Position numbers and translations under genes: made by a program. Positions 35,499-51,986 of a stretch of DNA of 64,000 nucleotides are shown here, in pieces. The number at the start of each line of letters is the position of its first letter. The first letter of the stretch is position 1. The notes under the pieces were generated by a model that had not been told where the DNA came from, searched no databases, and worked only from the letters and a program-made list of their open reading frames with translations. Source of the DNA: Candidatus Methanomethylicia archaeon. GTDB lineage: Archaea; Thermoproteota; Methanomethylicia; Culexarchaeales; Culexarchaeaceae. Location: NCBI GenBank assembly GCA_038727515.1, contig JAVYVS010000001.1:576001-640000 (forward strand). Reading direction: 5' to 3'.

Positions 35499-38480
35499 TT
35501 ATTTATAGGAGGAGGACCATTCCATAGCGATATGTCTAATGAATTTTGCAACCATCATAGAAAGTTTTTCAGAAGAACTTCCAATACTCTTAACATACAA
35601 TAGTATTTTACATTCACCATTATCATCAACATAAATTTCAAGAATATTCCTACTAGTATTCTTTGAAGCTGTACCTGAACCAATATCATATGTAAAAGTT
35701 AATTTATGTATATCTCTACCGGAAACCTTATCAACCCTTTTATCAACAATTCTAATACTTTCTTCTATTGAAGTTGGATAACTTTTAATCTTATTAAAAA
35801 CATAACTTAAAAACTCACCGATATATTTAGGATCCAATTTTAATGGAACTTCATATATATCAATTCTACCTTCAGGTGTATATTGAATATTACGCTTTAT
35901 ATTCCAAAGTTTAGAGGGTACAACTATCAATGCAGATCTAAAGACAATTGAAGATCCAATCACTAAAGCGATTAATGAGAGAATTATGGAAAAGAATACC
36001 CATAGAAATGAAATCTTTGGGAAAACTGCAATTCTACTGAAAATAGACATAACTTTATATAAGAAGATTCCAAAGGCATATCCAATGGATCCAGCTGAGA
36101 AACCCATAATTATAGATTCATTAATGAAAATTCTAAATAATTGTGAGGGGGAAGCTCCAAGAGAAGTGATAACAATAGATTCATACTCTCTTTCACGAAG
36201 TGATGCGATGGCAGATATTGTAGCGTTTAGTATTATTAAGATCATTGGTATAAATGCTTCAAACCCACTTGAAGAAAGATACTCAGCTAAAATCATATTT
36301 ATACATTCATCACCAATTAAAACAGTTGAAAGTATATTTCCACCTCTGAGAGCAATAGTTTTACCAATTGAATAAATATCAGTATTAAGTTTATAATATA
36401 CGTAAACTCTACTCACACTCAACTCAAAACTACTAATGTCAGACCAATGTATGAAAACAGTTTCACTTGGCTCACAAATTCTAGATTCATAAACATTTGG
36501 AACACCATCTTCACCCTTCATACTTAAAATCATCTTATATGGTAAAACATGTCTACCACTCAATTCACGCAAATTGTAAATAGCATTATCATCAAATAAA
36601 CCACAAATCTTGAAAAATCTAAATGGATTTCCAACGGGAATGGGAATTAAATCTCCAACTTTAAAACCAAGTTTTGAAGCTAGGGATATACTTATTGCAA
36701 TTTCACCACTTTTACTTGGTAAACCTCCAGTAATAAATGTCGATGAGACAAGTTTCGCTACTGGATCTGAAGAATCGGAGAAACTTACAATGCCCATTAT
36801 AGGTGTATTTTCACTAAATCTTGTATATGGAGTAACTCTAGCTTTAGATTCAGCTCTAAAAGTTTTATATTCAACTTGACCCAATAATTCAATCATATCA
36901 AGAACTGAAGAAGGGAGATTTTGTGCATATGGATTATTCTCAGCTTCACGAGGACTAAAACCAGATACAACATAATGATCTGGAACTCTAATTTCAATAC
37001 TTAAACCATCAACACCATAATCATTTCTCCTATAATAGGTTAATAGATCTACTTCAAGAGAAAATGATGTTAAGGCTAGAGAACCAGCTGTAAAAACAAT
37101 TAGAGAAATTAAAATTAAAATTGTACGAAGCTTTCTCCTCTTCAAATTCCTCTTAGAAACAGAAAACAATTCGGCTGAATCAACAATAAATCTAAAACCA
37201 ATAAATCCACGACTTAAAATCTCTAGTCCAGCTATAAGAATTAAAGGTGAAAATATTTTGGGGAGAAGGTTAATATCAAATTTTGGGAAGAGAGGATAAC
37301 TAATAGACAAAATATATAATAAAGATGCATATGAAACTATAGAAATAATAATTTTAAATATCAATCGCTCACTAATGAAATACCCGATAGAAACAGAACC
37401 AAAAATGAAAAATATCAATAGCAAGTTGATGGATAAAGAAGCTTCCATATACATCCCATCGATGGTAGAAGATAAACTTTTAAGCAAAACGCAGCAAGAC
37501 CTTAATGTTGCAAATGAAGCTGAAGGATTATCCCTCTCCAAGTAATCTTCAGCTTCATTTATCATTCTATTAATTCTATCAAGTTGAGAGAAAAGACTAG
37601 TAGTATAAAAACCATTCATCCTAGCGATATCCAATTTATTTAAAACACTATTATACATAGATTTTACAATTCTAAGGGAATCGCTAAGAGAAACATCATA
37701 AATAGTAAAATACATAATATCATTTGAAGATAATACTTCAAAATCATCAAATAATTTAACACTCAAATAAGATTCTCGAATACTTGGAGTTGTGGTATAA
37801 GTAGTTCTACCAAAAATTATAGTTGAAGGAATAGACATAGTCTCTTGAAAAACACCAGTAATGATTACATTTATTTTATAACCAGCTGGAACAGGAATAA
37901 CATTACCTTTTAAACCCAACATAGAATATACATTTGATAAATCTTTAAAATCATATTTCAAAAGACAATTCAAATCTTGAGGCAAATCTTTAACTTCCAC
38001 TTGATACATAACTCTACTTGCTGGATCACTATAATTAACATGCATAAATCCACCAGAAAAAACTAATACTGCAGCTGGAAGCATTGAAAAATTCAAATTT
38101 AAACTTTCAATTGTTGAAAGTGGATTTATAGGTATAGATGTACATACTGGAACTCTATCTGGAAATCCACTATTGTAATCAATATGAAAAACGAATATCT
38201 TAATGAAGCCACCAGAAAGGTACTTATTGATGTTTAATTGGTAGAAGCCATTCTCATTTGTTTTCACAGACCCCAAAAAATCACTCCAAGAATAATATTC
38301 ATGATAAACTATTACAATAGCATCGGAAAGCGCATGCGAATCCTCAAATTTAAAAACATAACCACTAATGGTGAAATTGGGATTTGACGAAAGTGAACAA
38401 TCTATTTGCGAAAATAGAAATGAAAAAGTTAAAATCACAAATAAAGCTCCTTTAATTATGCATTGAATTTTAAAATTCAT
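35499..38480 (-). CDS. Large membrane protein with extracellular domains and a MacB/FtsX-like permease domain
   Basis: Signal peptide, beta-sandwich (ISGYV...KTNENGFY), helical bundle, TM block, RNLKRRKLRT..I MacB-type motif, extracellular loop, ER..E.....SLGASP...IF..ES FtsX motif, 3 further TMs. Confidence 0.78.
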   Translation of the reverse strand: MNFKIQCIIKGALFVILTFSFLFSQIDCSLSSNPNFTISGYVFKFEDSHALSDAIVIVYHEYYSWSDFLGSVKTNENGFYQLNINKYLSGGFIKIFVFHIDYNSGFPDRVPVCTSIPINPLSTIESLNLNFSMLPAAVLVFSGGFMHVNYSDPASRVMYQVEVKDLPQDLNCLLKYDFKDLSNVYSMLGLKGNVIPVPAGYKINVIITGVFQETMSIPSTIIFGRTTYTTTPSIRESYLSVKLFDDFEVLSSNDIMYFTIYDVSLSDSLRIVKSMYNSVLNKLDIARMNGFYTTSLFSQLDRINRMINEAEDYLERDNPSASFATLRSCCVLLKSLSSTIDGMYMEASLSINLLLIFFIFGSVSIGYFISERLIFKIIISIVSYASLLYILSISYPLFPKFDINLLPKIFSPLILIAGLEILSRGFIGFRFIVDSAELFSVSKRNLKRRKLRTILILISLIVFTAGSLALTSFSLEVDLLTYYRRNDYGVDGLSIEIRVPDHYVVSGFSPREAENNPYAQNLPSSVLDMIELLGQVEYKTFRAESKARVTPYTRFSENTPIMGIVSFSDSSDPVAKLVSSTFITGGLPSKSGEIAISISLASKLGFKVGDLIPIPVGNPFRFFKICGLFDDNAIYNLRELSGRHVLPYKMILSMKGEDGVPNVYESRICEPSETVFIHWSDISSFELSVSRVYVYYKLNTDIYSIGKTIALRGGNILSTVLIGDECINMILAEYLSSSGFEAFIPMILIILNATISAIASLREREYESIVITSLGASPSQLFRIFINESIIMGFSAGSIGYAFGIFLYKVMSIFSRIAVFPKISFLWVFFSIILSLIALVIGSSIVFRSALIVVPSKLWNIKRNIQYTPEGRIDIYEVPLKLDPKYIGEFLSYVFNKIKSYPTSIEESIRIVDKRVDKVSGRDIHKLTFTYDIGSGTASKNTSRNILEIYVDDNGECKILLYVKSIGSSSEKLSMMVAKFIRHIAMEWSSSYK

Positions 38481-45029: not shown

Positions 45030-46221
45030 CTTTCTTCATCTTACTAACAGCAATTCTAGTTGTAACCTTCAAATCTTTAACATCCATCTTCCTAACTTCT
45101 AAGAGACCTTTATTTATACATTCTTCAAAAAGCTTCTCACCAAAATCGCTTCTAATTATAACAGTAGTCCAACCCTTAGGGGAATCTAAACCACCTAAAG
45201 ATATATCTGCTAATCTAGCTGTGAAATCGCTACAATAATCACAAGATTTACGTCCATAATCTTCTATCTCTTTTAAACTAATGGATAATAGGATTTCATC
45301 TCCAGATTTAACTGTAAGATTCCCCTCAGAAATATCAGTTTTAGTTATCTTATCTAAATTAATCCCCTTACTAACAAGGAAGTTTTTAAATAATGATGAG
45401 TAATAGAATGTTTTTGAACAGAATAATCCTAACGCAAATTTAACTGGTAAACCATATTTTAAAGCTCCATATTCATGGTATTGCATCTTCCTTAAACCAG
45501 TAATTTGACATCCTACACCGACAAATCCTACACTTTTAGTTTCAAATTCATCTATAGCGGCAGTTAAAGCTTTCAGATTTGGGCTTGCAGTATACTTAGA
45601 TCCAGCGCATTCCAATACATCCCTCCTATTAAATGCGACTTTCGGTTTAGGTTTAAATGGTTCTAAAGAATCTAAACCAGATAAAATAGCGCAATCAATA
45701 ATTCCAGACTCCAATGCATATATAATTATGGTGGATGCTACACCACCATCTTGAGCATACTTCAAAATCTCATTGTCAGTAGATCTAGCTGCATAAACAC
45801 TCTTCAAATAACCTAGAGATTCATGTTTAAAACTAGATGTAAAAATCTTTGAAGAAACACTTTGAACATCAAATGTTGTGTGTGGACATTGAGCATAACA
45901 AAAACCACAACCAATACATCTACCAACAATACTAGGTTTTTCATCTTTTTCATCAATAGCTTTAACGGGACATACACCAATACATGCACCACAAAAAGAA
46001 CATCTATCAGCTCTAATAACTTCACTAAATAAATGACCCCATATCTTAACTTTAAGTCCCAGAGACCCATCAGGCTTTATCCTAACGCCCAAAATCATCC
46101 ACCACAAAAATAAGATATCATAAAAACAATTAATAAGGGTTATCATAGATTCAATGGAAAAATAAATATATTAGATTTGAGAGACTTTCACGTTATCTAG
46201 ATAGTTAAAAGTGGATGTAAA

Positions 46222-48000
46222 ATGATAGAAGACTTCCAAGTGAAAGTTGCAAAATACGTAATGGAATGGGGAGAATGGATAGAGAAATGTGAATTGCTAT
46301 TACTACTTGATACTGAAAAAGATAAAATTAAGATTTATATGGATAAATTGTTAAGCCTTCAAAATGATGATGGAGGATTTCCACGTAATTGGATTAAAGG
46401 ATACTCCTCAGGAATAATCGAAACTGCAAAAGTTATAGAATTGGCTTCTAAAATAGGTTTAAAAAATGATGAAAGAATAGAAAGAGCAATAAAATTCTTA
46501 ATTAAAAATCAGCTTGAGAATGGAGCGTGGATGGAAGAATCATTAGAATATGAAGATAATTCAAATGATGTAATAGTTTCAGCATATGCATTAAAAGCTA
46601 TAGCGACAGCTGGTATTAAGGGGGAAGTTGTAGATAAATGTGTAAGATACTTATTGGAAAGTCAAAGAGATGATGGATTATGGCCAAAAACAAAGGCAGG
46701 AATAAATCCAGATTTGGAAGCTTCTGGAAGAGTTTTAATAGCATTGCATGAAACAAAAAATAAGATTGCTACAAAAGCCATTAAAAATGGATTTGAAAGT
46801 TTAATGGAAGTATTTATTGAAAAATCAACGAAAGAATGGGATACACTCTCAGAAGATATACTACCAATAATTGAAGCAATATCAATTATACAACCAAAGA
46901 AAAATACAGCTGCCAGGAAAATAATAGATAGCTATATAAAAGGTGAAAAATGGGAATTTCAAGATAGAAGAAGTGAAAATACAAACAACCTATTAAACTT
47001 AATTAGGGTAATGGCTTTAACAAACATCATAAATAAAGATAAAGTTAAAGAGGAAATAAACAAATTATTGGAATTAAAATTAAATCTCAAGAGGATTATA
47101 GAGAAATTTGAAAATGAAGCCAAAGAGATATTACTATCAAAATTTGAAAATATAGGGATTAAGAGGAATGATCCTCAGAAGAAGATATTGCTTGGATTAT
47201 TCATATACTCACTATTAGAACAATTTTTCTGGGCTGCAGAATATGAACCGCAAACAGAATTTATTGGTGTAATAGATAGAGTTGGAACACTAGATAAAAT
47301 TGAGAACTACACAGACTATGAAAAGATTAGAAAAGCATTATTTAGGAGTAAAGCTCTTACTGGAGTTGCAAAAAAGAAGAAGGAGGATGCTGCAAAAAGT
47401 ATAACGTTATTTGCTAGATTCCTAATACAAAATAATGAAATAAATGTATTTGAAGAATTCGTCAAAAAACTAATTGAATTTACATTATTTGAAATAGCGC
47501 CAACACTTTCAGGGGCAACAACAGCAAGAAAGCTTGGTCTACTACTAAGAAACTACACTAAAAATGAAATTGAAATGTACAAATTATTTGAATCATTAAA
47601 ATTATCACTGGAATGCTTCCCATCAATAGGATCTAAGATATCAACATTATATCCATACTACACTATATGGATATATAACATATGGAATGAAGTGAGAAAA
47701 TACATAGAAACTCCAATAGACTGGAATACAGTAAAAACATATATAAGTATAGGCTTAAGCAATTTAACATTAAAAGATCTTAGGAAGGATCCGAGAAGAG
47801 CATCTAAAGCAATAAATAAGCTATCTGAAGAACTATTTCCAGAGGATAAAGCAAAAATATCATTACTGTGGATAGCTGGAAGAGAATGGTGTACAAAACC
47901 ATATAAATGCTATGGGCATATGGGCAGAAAATGCTGGTTCTATGATATTTGTATGAGGAGGATGAAAGATGAAGAAAGAAGAAAAAAGAATATGGGATAA
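46222..48000 (+). CDS. Prenyltransferase/squalene-cyclase QW-repeat barrel fused to an HhH-GPD/EndoIII-like Fe-S domain
   Basis: LLSLQNDDGGF, LIKNQLENGAW, LLESQRDDGLW repeats; C-terminal LECFPSIGSKIS (HhH), PIDWN, LW..GREWC-x5-C-x7-C-x5-C. Confidence 0.72.
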   Translation: MIEDFQVKVAKYVMEWGEWIEKCELLLLLDTEKDKIKIYMDKLLSLQNDDGGFPRNWIKGYSSGIIETAKVIELASKIGLKNDERIERAIKFLIKNQLENGAWMEESLEYEDNSNDVIVSAYALKAIATAGIKGEVVDKCVRYLLESQRDDGLWPKTKAGINPDLEASGRVLIALHETKNKIATKAIKNGFESLMEVFIEKSTKEWDTLSEDILPIIEAISIIQPKKNTAARKIIDSYIKGEKWEFQDRRSENTNNLLNLIRVMALTNIINKDKVKEEINKLLELKLNLKRIIEKFENEAKEILLSKFENIGIKRNDPQKKILLGLFIYSLLEQFFWAAEYEPQTEFIGVIDRVGTLDKIENYTDYEKIRKALFRSKALTGVAKKKKEDAAKSITLFARFLIQNNEINVFEEFVKKLIEFTLFEIAPTLSGATTARKLGLLLRNYTKNEIEMYKLFESLKLSLECFPSIGSKISTLYPYYTIWIYNIWNEVRKYIETPIDWNTVKTYISIGLSNLTLKDLRKDPRRASKAINKLSEELFPEDKAKISLLWIAGREWCTKPYKCYGHMGRKCWFYDICMRRMKDEERRKKNMG

Positions 48001-48919
48001 GTATCTAACAAAATTTTCTGCAAAAATCGAGGGGGGACTCTTAAAAGATCTAAGAAATGAAATGGATAAGAGAAGTGAAATTGTAAAAACACATTACAAA
48101 AGATTGCTAGATAATTTGAACATTACAACAGAAGATACTAGGAATATGCTTATGGATATATTCGTTTACTCAGTATTTGATAAATATAATTGGAAACTAA
48201 GAAGTAAAGGTGAAACTCCATCAAAAGAATATAAGAGATTCAAAAGTGTAGTAACGAAATTTGATTATTATCTTGATGAAGATCTATTATACTATGCCAT
48301 AAAAGATGAATGCAATGAACTTAGCAATATAAATAAAACTGATGTAGAAAGAATAATAAAATCAATGTCATACCTAGCTCAAGGATTAGCTAACATAGAA
48401 AACTTCGAATTTATAAATTTTGCAGAATCTCTAAGGAGACATATAATGTTCAATGTTTCAAAGGATCTACCAGAAAAAATATACAAAATAAAATCTTACT
48501 ATTATGGTTTGCTTACCATGACTAAGATCAAAGACAATTTAACAGCTATAGATTCATTGAAAACATCAATATTATGTCTCCCCATAGGAGAGCAACAAAT
48601 AACAAACATGTACCTATACCTACTATTAATAGTTTTGAATGTATGGAATGTAAGTGGAAAAACATATGTATACTCACCATTAGACAATGGAGTCTCAGAA
48701 GTCCTATTAAGCCTTGGATTAACAGATAAAAGAATAGAAGACATGGAATATGAAAATACGGGATACAAAGCATACAAAATAATAAGTGAAATGTTATTTC
48801 CAGAGGAACCATCAAAAATGATGGTTACTAGGGCCGTAGCAGAAAGATGGTGTTACCAAAAGAAGATTAAAATATGTGATGAATGTTGGTTTAACAATGT
48901 ATGCCCAAAGGAATATTAA
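47969..48919 (+). CDS. Divergent HhH-GPD/EndoIII-like Fe-S protein, paralogue of the upstream gene's C-terminal half
   Basis: ILCLPIGEQQIT, SPLDN, LFPEEP, RWC-x7-C-x2-C-x5-CP FCL-like cluster motif; collinear similarity to the upstream protein. Confidence 0.68.
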   Translation: MKKEEKRIWDKYLTKFSAKIEGGLLKDLRNEMDKRSEIVKTHYKRLLDNLNITTEDTRNMLMDIFVYSVFDKYNWKLRSKGETPSKEYKRFKSVVTKFDYYLDEDLLYYAIKDECNELSNINKTDVERIIKSMSYLAQGLANIENFEFINFAESLRRHIMFNVSKDLPEKIYKIKSYYYGLLTMTKIKDNLTAIDSLKTSILCLPIGEQQITNMYLYLLLIVLNVWNVSGKTYVYSPLDNGVSEVLLSLGLTDKRIEDMEYENTGYKAYKIISEMLFPEEPSKMMVTRAVAERWCYQKKIKICDECWFNNVCPKEY

Positions 48920-50176
48920 TTACTCACCAAACTTCTTAGCTTTAGATGAGTAACTTAAAAGTATTGGAAGTAAATCTAAACCTCTAATACGTCCAAGTCC
49001 ACCCTTTAAACAATCTCTTTCACTAAACTTATTAACATCATCATTAACAATATATGGGCCATAAATAAGTACTGGAACTGGATCTCCGGAATGATCCCTA
49101 ATAATTATTGGAGAACAGTGATCAGCTGTAATTGATAAATAGACTTCATACTTGTTTAACCCTTCAATAATCCTTCCAACCATTTCATCCACAGCTTCAA
49201 TAAATCTAATTTTCTCTTTAATCAATCCATCATGACTAGCAGTATCAGCACCTTTAACATGCAAAAATATGAAATCATATTTCTCGGCAGCTTTAACAGC
49301 TGCTTCAGCCTTCGCCATCAAATTACTATTTAAACCGCCAGTAGCACCTTCAACATTTAGAACATCTAAACCAACAGCTTTTGCAACACCTTTAATCAAT
49401 GGAACTCCTGCAATACATACACCCTTAATACCATAACGTTCTTCAAATTTCTTAATATTTGGAAGAGTACCAGCACCTCTACAAAGAATTATATTTGCAG
49501 GTTTATGACCTCTGGAAATCCTAGATAAATTAGCTGGGTGAGAAGATAGTACTTTAAAACTTTTAATGGTAAATTCATTTAGTATATTGGCTGTCCTTAT
49601 AGCTTCAGGTGTATTAGATAAAGGTTTTGAAGTAAGGATTTTAACATTCTCCTTTTCAGGATCAGTATCACTAACATCTTTTGAAAGCCCAGATCCCCTT
49701 AAAACTAAAACACCCCTATGCTCTATACCGTGTTTAAATATTATTGAAACATTTGGAGAAGATTCAATTTTAATATCATTAATAGCTTCAGCAAGTAAAT
49801 CTCCTTCAACAAGATATCTACCAGCCCTTCTATCTAAAACTATTAAATCATCATTTACTGTAGCAAAATTAGCTCTAAAAGCTATATCTCCAGGAAATAA
49901 ATCTAAACCTAAACCAAGAGCTTCAAAAGCCCCTCTACCAGTATAACATTCATATGGGTCATAACCAAGCAAAGCAAGATTTGCAGGCGCACTACCGGGA
50001 GGGATACCTACTCCAATAACATCTATAATACCAGTCAGTCCATTTCTAGTCAATTCATCAATTGTGGGTTTATTTGCAACTTCAAGAGGAGTCTTATAGT
50101 TAAGTTCTGGTATTGCTCTATCACCCATACCATCAACAACAATTAATATTATGCGTTTTTCAACCATAGAGATCAT
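48920..50176 (-). CDS. apgM: 2,3-bisphosphoglycerate-independent phosphoglycerate mutase (archaeal type)
   Basis: DGMGD, KTPLE.A, PGS, YTGRG..EA, RANFAT, DRRAGR, HVKG.D..SHDG, TADH, HSGDPVP. Confidence 0.93.
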   Translation of the reverse strand: MISMVEKRIILIVVDGMGDRAIPELNYKTPLEVANKPTIDELTRNGLTGIIDVIGVGIPPGSAPANLALLGYDPYECYTGRGAFEALGLGLDLFPGDIAFRANFATVNDDLIVLDRRAGRYLVEGDLLAEAINDIKIESSPNVSIIFKHGIEHRGVLVLRGSGLSKDVSDTDPEKENVKILTSKPLSNTPEAIRTANILNEFTIKSFKVLSSHPANLSRISRGHKPANIILCRGAGTLPNIKKFEERYGIKGVCIAGVPLIKGVAKAVGLDVLNVEGATGGLNSNLMAKAEAAVKAAEKYDFIFLHVKGADTASHDGLIKEKIRFIEAVDEMVGRIIEGLNKYEVYLSITADHCSPIIIRDHSGDPVPVLIYGPYIVNDDVNKFSERDCLKGGLGRIRGLDLLPILLSYSSKAKKFGE

Positions 50177-51626: not shown

Positions 51627-51986
51627 ATGAGTGGGAAAAAGGAGAAAATACCCTTTAGGGTTAAAATGGCTGATGGAAGTATAGAAACAGTATATGCATA
51701 TTCAGAGAAGCAAGCATTATTCCTAGCATCAAAAAGTGGGAAGAAGGCGTTGGAAGTTGTAGGAATACTTATGAAGACTGAAGAAAAACCTATTGAAAAA
51801 GAAAGAGTTAATGAAAAAAAGATTGAATTATTTGAAAAACTTGAAGAAGCTTTAAAGAATAAAAGATACATAGAGGCTATAGAATATAAAATACAAATTC
51901 AAAAAATGATATCTAATGGAGAAATAAATTGGAATAATGAATTAGAGAAGAAGTATGGATTATTTGGATTATGGTGTAATAAATGA
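51627..51986 (+). CDS. Small hypothetical protein
   Basis: 119-aa ORF with plus-strand codon style; ATGA overlap with the downstream peptidase. Confidence 0.65.
   Translation: MSGKKEKIPFRVKMADGSIETVYAYSEKQALFLASKSGKKALEVVGILMKTEEKPIEKERVNEKKIELFEKLEEALKNKRYIEAIEYKIQIQKMISNGEINWNNELEKKYGLFGLWCNK

Follow-up and report, generated by a model that had tools for sequence, protein, structure and literature searches.

N-Glycosylases of the HhH-GPD superfamily have been described in some mechanistic detail. In endonuclease III (EndoIII, or Nth), Gln41 is the void-filling residue, and catalysis depends on Lys120 and Asp138 (PMC5924532). Monofunctional members of the superfamily lack the HhH Lys, as does MIG, which has Tyr126 in its place (PMC9945173), so that loss of this Lys alone would not imply inactivity. 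Qng1, a monomer, uses an HhH Lys/Asp pair to act on a nucleotide (PMC9881137). Here we describe a pair of genes, A and B (Table 1), from a “Candidatus Methanomethylicia” archaeon of the order Culexarchaeales (GenBank assembly GCA_038727515.1, contig JAVYVS010000001.1), located in a 64,000-nucleotide stretch (positions 576,001 to 640,000; hereafter, the window). The pair is predicted to encode a heterodimer of divergent HhH-GPD domains, one of which is fused to a toroid of the squalene-hopene cyclase fold.

The two open reading frames are co-oriented and overlap by 32 nucleotides, and each is present in a single copy in the source genome. The C-terminal half of A and the whole of B are paralogous, far above chance: they share 25% identity over 274 amino acids (BLASTP E value, 6e-22), and their local alignment score of 237 compares with a maximum of 77 among 1,000 shuffles. 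This agrees with the initial annotation, made from the sequence alone, which had described overlapping co-oriented genes with collinear products; all the motifs quoted there are present.

Assignment of these proteins to the HhH-GPD superfamily requires both a family profile and the fold, as the window proteins alone miss the Pfam HhH-GPD domain. Neither A nor B matches Pfam HhH-GPD or NCBIfam Nth at the curated cutoff, and a single-sequence search of PDB likewise gave no HhH match; the best single family member reaches an E value of 0.12 against Pfam HhH-GPD/Nth, versus 1e-24 for the true Nth of the source genome. A shallow profile gave no HhH match, and Foldseek alone returned nothing for B at an E value of ≤0.001. 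A search of 1.8 billion representative sequences yielded 33 homologs, and a 46-row family profile matches EndoIII (1orn; E value, 8.6e-5), aligning its hairpin Lys and its Asp with those of the enzyme, and also retrieves ordinary Nth genes across the phylum. In hhalign comparisons with archaeal Nth, A and B score 97.6% and 98.8%, respectively. N-glycosylases of the HhH superfamily fill the first 20 places when the B model is compared with known structures (Z scores, 14.0 to 8.9; root mean square deviation [RMSD], 3.3 to 4.5; 177 to 238 aligned residues), with EndoIII-3, MutY, MUTYH, EndoIII, AGOG, MIG, NTHL1, and Qng1 at Z scores of 14.0 to 12.1 (for 8a5g, a Z score of 14.0, an RMSD of 3.8, and 225 aligned residues), while unrelated folds do not exceed 5.4. 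The fold of the A C-terminal domain is assigned through its paralogy to B, the hhalign score, and the match of the B model to an A-like Atlas cluster (TM score, 0.81). We regard homology of both proteins to HhH-GPD as practically certain, and the HhH/EndoIII fold suggested in the initial annotation is borne out by Z scores of 13 to 14 to EndoIII and MutY. Within the superfamily, A and B form a clade of their own apart from Nth (support, 100/100), and none of the 46 family members passes the cutoffs for Nth, DUF2400, or Q_salvage (the PF09674 cutoff is 25 bits, and nothing in the source genome matched it). A likeness of B to the phage amino-acid:DNA transferase (PUGT) was also considered and was rejected at a Z score of only 6.1.

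The prediction of an A-B complex received a score of 0.83, versus 0.01 for the best control, with a partner pLDDT of at least 88 and with runs agreeing in at least 88% of contacts. Of 80 solved complexes, 58 attain this mark, as do 2 of 110 mismatched pairs; this calibration is only rough for our own alignments. In the model, the interface is pseudo-symmetric, with helices crossing at Gly439 of A and Gly180 of B, and does not involve the toroid. Family-wide residue counts, here and below, cover 26 A-types, 24 B-types outside a clade of B-only proteins, and the 6 B-only proteins themselves. Across these sets, the occurrence of the interface Gly in B follows that of A (Table 1); the Gly is absent from every B-only protein, and two of the six lack the helix itself. 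The B-only proteins form one clade (support, 100/99), and the absence of A was verified in three genomes that are 86 to 97% complete. On the strength of this model, the heterodimer proposed in the initial annotation appears likely.

The initial annotation also had A keeping the catalytic Lys and Asp and B losing the Lys but keeping the Asp. The alignments agree: in A, Lys472 and Asp500 fall on the catalytic Lys and Asp of EndoIII, and Gln210 and Asp239 occupy these positions in B. In all 10 Culexarchaeales A proteins, which are 48 to 74% identical in this domain, Gln334, the P-x-x-G-x-Lys472 hairpin, and Asp500 are invariant, and their B partners have a variable Lys site (Gln, His, or Tyr) and no hairpin Gly. 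A wider A clade that includes loci L079, L084, L080, and L082 (support, 97/91) retains the Gln and the Asp in 12 of 12 members and the Lys in 11 of 12. In the second A group, only 3 of 14 members keep the Lys, four have lost the Asp, and a stretch of about 40 residues is missing from the helical domain of several. Its B partners mostly carry an Arg-x-x-Asn motif, an H-x-P-x-D motif, and an Arg pair after the Asp, often with the canonical Cys spacing. The role that is conserved seems to have shifted towards B in this Thermoproteia lineage. The earlier proposal of an active A and a regulatory B thus fits the order Culexarchaeales but cannot be extended to the whole family, because in the second lineage A decays (losses of the Lys or the Asp there fall mostly on A) and B looks the more canonical of the two.

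Both domains end in four conserved Cys residues at a homologous place. Judging from the motifs, B probably binds a [4Fe-4S] cluster and A, with somewhat less likelihood, does so as well, with Zn as a possible alternative ligand metal. The EndoIII spacing, C-x6-C-x2-C-x5-C, is found in neither of the window proteins; it is present in many distant B-types. The C-terminal domain of A is basic (+15 in the window protein). We lean modestly towards the view that A cleaves some N-glycoside.

The N-terminal part of A accounts for the database name of A-type proteins, “terpene cyclase/mutase family protein”, an automatic fold label only, which this analysis corrects. The QW region passes the Pfam cutoffs of SQHop_cyclase_C and SQHop_cyclase_N and matches squalene-hopene cyclase among PDB sequences in a phmmer search. 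The three QW repeats of the initial annotation are indeed there, but the region extends to a complete toroid: the model places 12 helices within residues 1 to 266, and residues 1 to 273 match squalene-hopene cyclase 1gsz over the full (α/α)6 barrel (Z score, 19.9; RMSD, 3.8; 254 aligned residues) and MstE with a Z score of 19.0. The supposed coiled-coil linker is modeled as a single long helix, with no coiled coil seen. Not far behind, within about 2 Z units of the cyclases, come GH76 and other glycoside hydrolases, epimerases, and the TED domains of complement. The cyclase DxDD site aligns to G64-I-I-E67, and neither DxDD, whose absence had already been noted, nor DDxxD occurs in any of 25 A-type toroids; no prenyltransferase metal motif was found in the A toroid, and the score against TIGR01787 is 42 bits, below the cutoff of 322.7. 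The best-conserved toroid columns are structural Gly, Trp, and Thr residues of the QW type, and in Culexarchaeales the toroid is the fastest-diverging part of the system (34 to 64% identity, versus 48 to 74% for the C-terminal domain). Given the missing motifs, the structural nature of the conserved columns, and the fast divergence, we read the toroid as a noncatalytic module. Lys22 and D-x-E (residues 164 to 166) are moderately conserved at the starts of inner helices and could line a ligand site.

A and B are adjacent in all 10 Culexarchaeales genomes searched, where they lie between tfb and an frhB-like gene on one side and apgM on the other; they were not found in other searched families of the same class. 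In a second class, the deep-branching Thermoproteia (members of which are named “Thermoprotei archaeon” at NCBI), both genes occur in 12 genomes, in some cases on separate contigs; B alone is present in three genomes from a single family, and three large families have neither. Further lineages hold adjacent A-B pairs, and no genome searched has A without B. The carriers are uncultured archaea of hot springs and vents. Thus, the pairing seen in the window is a conserved one, with the two genes co-occurring even when unlinked. Close homologs bear the labels Verstraetearchaeota/Methanomethylicia or Culexarchaeum/Culexmicrobium. The A and B subtrees show matching groups, although support for A as a single group is weak (72/78), and the topology would fit one old duplication followed by co-inheritance. 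No A or B homologs were found in the phage records, IMG/VR, or BFVD collections searched, and PADLOC gave no match for either protein. With its single copy, order-wide presence, fixed synteny, and lack of viral or PADLOC matches, this is a housekeeping rather than a defense pattern. The source genome also encodes an ordinary Nth (C3:104174) and an Nth-like protein (C1:566901).

The explanation that we favor, tentatively, is a housekeeping heterodimeric Fe-S N-glycosylase and apurinic/apyrimidinic (AP) lyase, in which A acts on a nonstandard DNA lesion or modification and the toroid is noncatalytic. The A-B complex would be ancient and vertically inherited, with its two HhH domains packed pseudo-symmetrically, as they are in the model, and with one [4Fe-4S] cluster bound by each four-Cys loop. 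In Culexarchaeales, A would be the catalytic subunit: the P-x-x-G-x-K hairpin would anchor the DNA, Gln334 would fill the void, Asp500 would assist in breaking the N-glycosidic bond, and a Schiff base at Lys472 would lead to nicking of the abasic site. Having neither the Gly nor the Lys of the hairpin, B might stabilize A or provide a second, lyase-less site, and the toroid might serve as a scaffold or as a ligand-binding module. With an ordinary Nth already encoded in the genome, the substrate is probably something other than a standard oxidized pyrimidine; the neighboring genes point to no substrate. Retention of the pair alongside the ordinary Nth in every Culexarchaeales genome searched may mark an unrecognized lesion, modification, or salvage step. 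Culexarchaeales are anaerobes of 53 to 83°C sediments, with about 85°C predicted (10.1101/2022.04.06.487207), and the two proteins should be thermostable.

Several observations weigh against this reading. Family-wide, near-invariance is limited to the hairpin Pro and the Cys residues, and Lys472 is kept in just 14 of the 26 A-types. Ser or Thr, typical helix caps, stand in place of the Asp in every B-only protein and in several of the A-types, the pair at locus L092 lacks the Asp in both subunits, and several A-types of the second group have lost about 40 residues of the helical domain. As to the heterodimer, paralogous pairs may score high in complex prediction through their likeness, and, as the B-only proteins are one clade, the loss of the interface Gly together with A counts as a single event. 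Dimerization could also bury the DNA wedge region if the interface helices correspond to αE/αF of EndoIII; on this point, alignment of A to Nth favors an insertion, whereas alignment of A to AGOG and the match to 1orn favor αE/αF. Finally, repair genes are absent among the neighbors at the loci examined.

The same substitutions and deletions would fit a noncatalytic Fe-S heterodimer. Such a pseudo-glycosylase would bind or sense nucleic acid (or redox state), would use the toroid for docking of proteins or ligands, and would keep the Asp mainly as a helix cap. The retention of A-types with the deletion, the absence of the catalytic pair from L092 and the B-only clade, and the presence of other HhH glycosylases in the source genome all speak for this possibility. 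However, a pure scaffold would have no need of Gln334, Lys472, and Asp500, which are jointly invariant throughout the order and almost invariant in three other lineages, and we consider this alternative possible but not likely. It is rather unlikely that A and B are a Qng1/DUF2419-like N-glycosylase of a substrate other than DNA, whether a modified nucleotide, a base in RNA, or a cofactor, with the insertions and the partner closing the cleft. Qng1 does tie with EndoIII in Z score (12.1 to 12.2), and gives the longest alignment (233 to 238 residues), and it shows that nucleotides are within the reach of an HhH Lys/Asp pair (PMC9881137). Among Atlas clusters, the best match outside the family is PfkB-Q_salvage (TM score, 0.65; 265 aligned residues), and PyrE-like, SurE, or HAD neighbors occur at some loci. 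Yet A keeps the DNA-binding hairpin Gly, an EndoIII-type cluster loop, and a basic C-terminal domain, and the nucleotide metabolism neighbors vary between lineages.

A more ambitious version of the favored glycosylase explanation would have A and B form an obligate heterodimer of the HhH-GPD type, equipped with two Fe-S clusters and excising a base modification or adduct beyond the reach of known glycosylases, with the bulky part held in the toroid and the catalytic role moved between subunits across archaeal lineages; we view this version as quite doubtful. The isoprenoid binding or transfer, coupled to base excision or modification, that was put forward in the initial annotation is improbable: type II terpene cyclases are the closest toroid folds, the moderately conserved Lys22 and D-x-E sit at inner-helix starts, and two distant A/B loci lie near mevalonate genes, but the toroid lacks all the catalytic and metal motifs sought, resembles several other enzyme and protein families almost as closely, is the most divergent part of A, and is missing, with A altogether, from one lineage. 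The antiviral glycosylase against modified viral DNA suggested there is highly improbable, for although divergent HhH domains can serve conflict systems and nuclease-like tails are attached to DUF2400 relatives in archaea, A and B have the single copy, order-wide fixed position, and mirrored subtrees described above, with no PADLOC match for the window proteins and no homolog in the viral collections searched.

Upstream of A, a GGAAA-A/T-rich box is similar, by eye, in loci L001 to L005 at the same distance before the gene; a sigma-70 promoter scan, whose model is not applicable to archaea, stayed at chance level. The GAGGAGG motif inside the end of A suggests translational coupling of the two genes. 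The stop codon of B touches that of the convergent apgM (positions 48917 to 48922 of the window) with zero gap, and the same is seen in L001 to L004; the P-K-E-Y C terminus of B is invariant in Culexarchaeales. Elsewhere in the window, positions 35499 to 38480 encode a 993-amino-acid ABC permease-like membrane protein with distant homologs close to the A-B genes of L036, L037, and L039, and positions 51627 to 51986 encode a 119-amino-acid protein that is conserved in L002 and L003 and has no Pfam match. The source genome has two more genes for HhH-like four-Cys proteins without a Pfam match (C1:80785-81642, L106; C4:51564-52211, L109), and a B-only genome encodes a 312-amino-acid HhH/four-Cys protein (L104:910-1845), also without a Pfam match, with Qng1-like motifs by eye. 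The B-only genes of L038, L042, and L090 adjoin a Vps4/CdvC and ESCRT-III-like cell division cluster in varying orientation. A RimK/MptN-like ATP-grasp ligase gene is head-to-head with A in seven Thermoproteia loci, L036, L037, L039, L041, L074, L083, and L092, even where B has moved. A link to methanopterin through this ligase was rejected, and the arrangement was ascribed to lineage synteny, because mch is missing in the near-complete carriers G316, G346, and G080 and present in many noncarriers; in the source genome, the only RimK/MptN-like match sits away from A and B, beside mch. In G374 (C1:411359-412156), mch appears to be split into several frames.

Table 1. Features of the A-B locus, numbered from the first nucleotide of the window
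Feature	Position(s)	Strand	Description	Basis and conservation
BRE/TATA-like archaeal promoter motif	46156..46171	+	About 50 to 65 nucleotides upstream of A	Judged by eye
Gene A	46222..48000	+	592 amino acids; (α/α)6 toroid plus divergent HhH-GPD/four-Cys domain	Open reading frame; model pLDDT 89.4, pTM 0.85
Toroid of A	46222..47040	+	Residues 1-273; complete 12-helix QW toroid	Pfam PF13243/PF13249; structure match to 1gsz
QW motifs of A	start 46360, 46510, 46663	+	Residues 47-53, 97-103, 148-154	
Long helix of A	47035..47151	+	Residues 272-310; toroid-to-HhH connector	DSSP on model
Gln334 of A	47221..47223	+	Probable equivalent of the void-filling Gln41 of EndoIII	Moderate-confidence profile alignment to Nth; 10/10 Culexarchaeales
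Predicted dimer interface of A	47485..47562	+	Residues 422-447, centered on Gly439	Complex model; Gly in 22/26 and Ala in 4/26 A-types
Lys472 of A	47635..47637	+	HhH hairpin; position of EndoIII Lys120	Profile alignments; 10/10 Culexarchaeales, 14/26 A-types
Asp500 of A	47719..47721	+	Position of EndoIII Asp138	Profile alignments; 22/26 A-types
Four-Cys motif of A	47890..47952	+	C557-x5-C-x7-C-x5-C577, after an EndoIII-like G-R-x-x-C	Sequence alignment
Shine-Dalgarno-like GAGGAGG	47955..47961	+	Before B, within the end of A	Sequence reading
Gene B	47969..48919	+	316 amino acids; stand-alone paralog of the A C-terminal domain, HhH-GPD fold	Model pLDDT 94.6, pTM 0.93
Predicted dimer interface of B	48446..48526	+	Residues 160-186, centered on Gly180	Complex model; Gly in 24/24 B-types outside the B-only clade, 0/6 within
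Gln210 of B	48596..48598	+	At the HhH Lys position	Gln/His/Tyr in Culexarchaeales, often Arg elsewhere
Asp239 of B	48683..48685	+	Position of EndoIII Asp138	Asp in 20/24 and Glu in 2/24 B-types; Asp in 0/6 B-only proteins
Four-Cys motif of B	48851..48904	+	C295-x7-C-x2-C-x5-C312	Four Cys invariant in 25 B-types

A literature search, with most subscription papers outside its reach, found no paper on the A-B pair or on a fusion of HhH-GPD with a toroid. Among the type II terpene cyclases, the β-domain of squalene-hopene cyclase and single-domain enzymes such as MstE share with A the (α/α)6 fold and the QW motifs (Z scores, 19 to 20), whereas A lacks the DxDD general acid (or DCTAE) of the SHC/OSC enzymes and is fused to an HhH domain. 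DUF2400/TIGR02757 (PF09674) is the most frequent Pfam match in the family, seen below the cutoff in 8 of 46 members (best E value, 3.9e-4), and has in common with it the W...P-x-D and F-P-x-D-P-x-K segments (hhalign, 96.4%; Atlas TM score, 0.61). However, the match spans only 77 columns, and the R-W-x-x-R motif that marks the set of archaeal DUF2400 proteins is missing from the family. DUF2400 is itself uncharacterized, the literature search having returned one incidental paper. Archaeal DUF2400 proteins of 411 to 450 amino acids (L110:1069-2304, L111:186-1481, L113:1009-2361, and L114:1006-2256) have C-terminal tails that match no Pfam family and look like PD-(D/E)xK nucleases by eye; these are possible modification-dependent nucleases.

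Qng1/DUF2419 and AGOG have the HhH fold with insertions and a Lys/Asp pair (PMC9881137) and match B with Z scores of 12.1 to 12.6. Their sequence similarity to the A/B family is weak or none, there is no Q_salvage Pfam match in the 46 members, and the β-hairpin insertions of Qng1 are absent from the B model, which has no β-strands. To our knowledge, neither Qng1 nor AGOG has an Fe-S loop. The closest known systems remain EndoIII (Nth), MutY, and MIG, in which the two-lobed fold (Z scores, 12.4 to 14.0), the hairpin Lys, the Asp, and the C-terminal four-Cys loop are all in register with the family. In contrast to these enzymes of 210 amino acids, which, as far as we know, act as monomeric single chains, the A/B domain has about 300 amino acids with two extra helices, belongs to its own clade, shows altered Cys spacing in A, is predicted to form a heterodimer, and is fused in A to a toroid. 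The A-B pair is a new architectural variant of the known HhH-GPD superfamily, for which a heterodimer conserved in this way, joined at a defined Gly-Gly interface and bearing a fused toroid, would, if true, be a new quaternary design.

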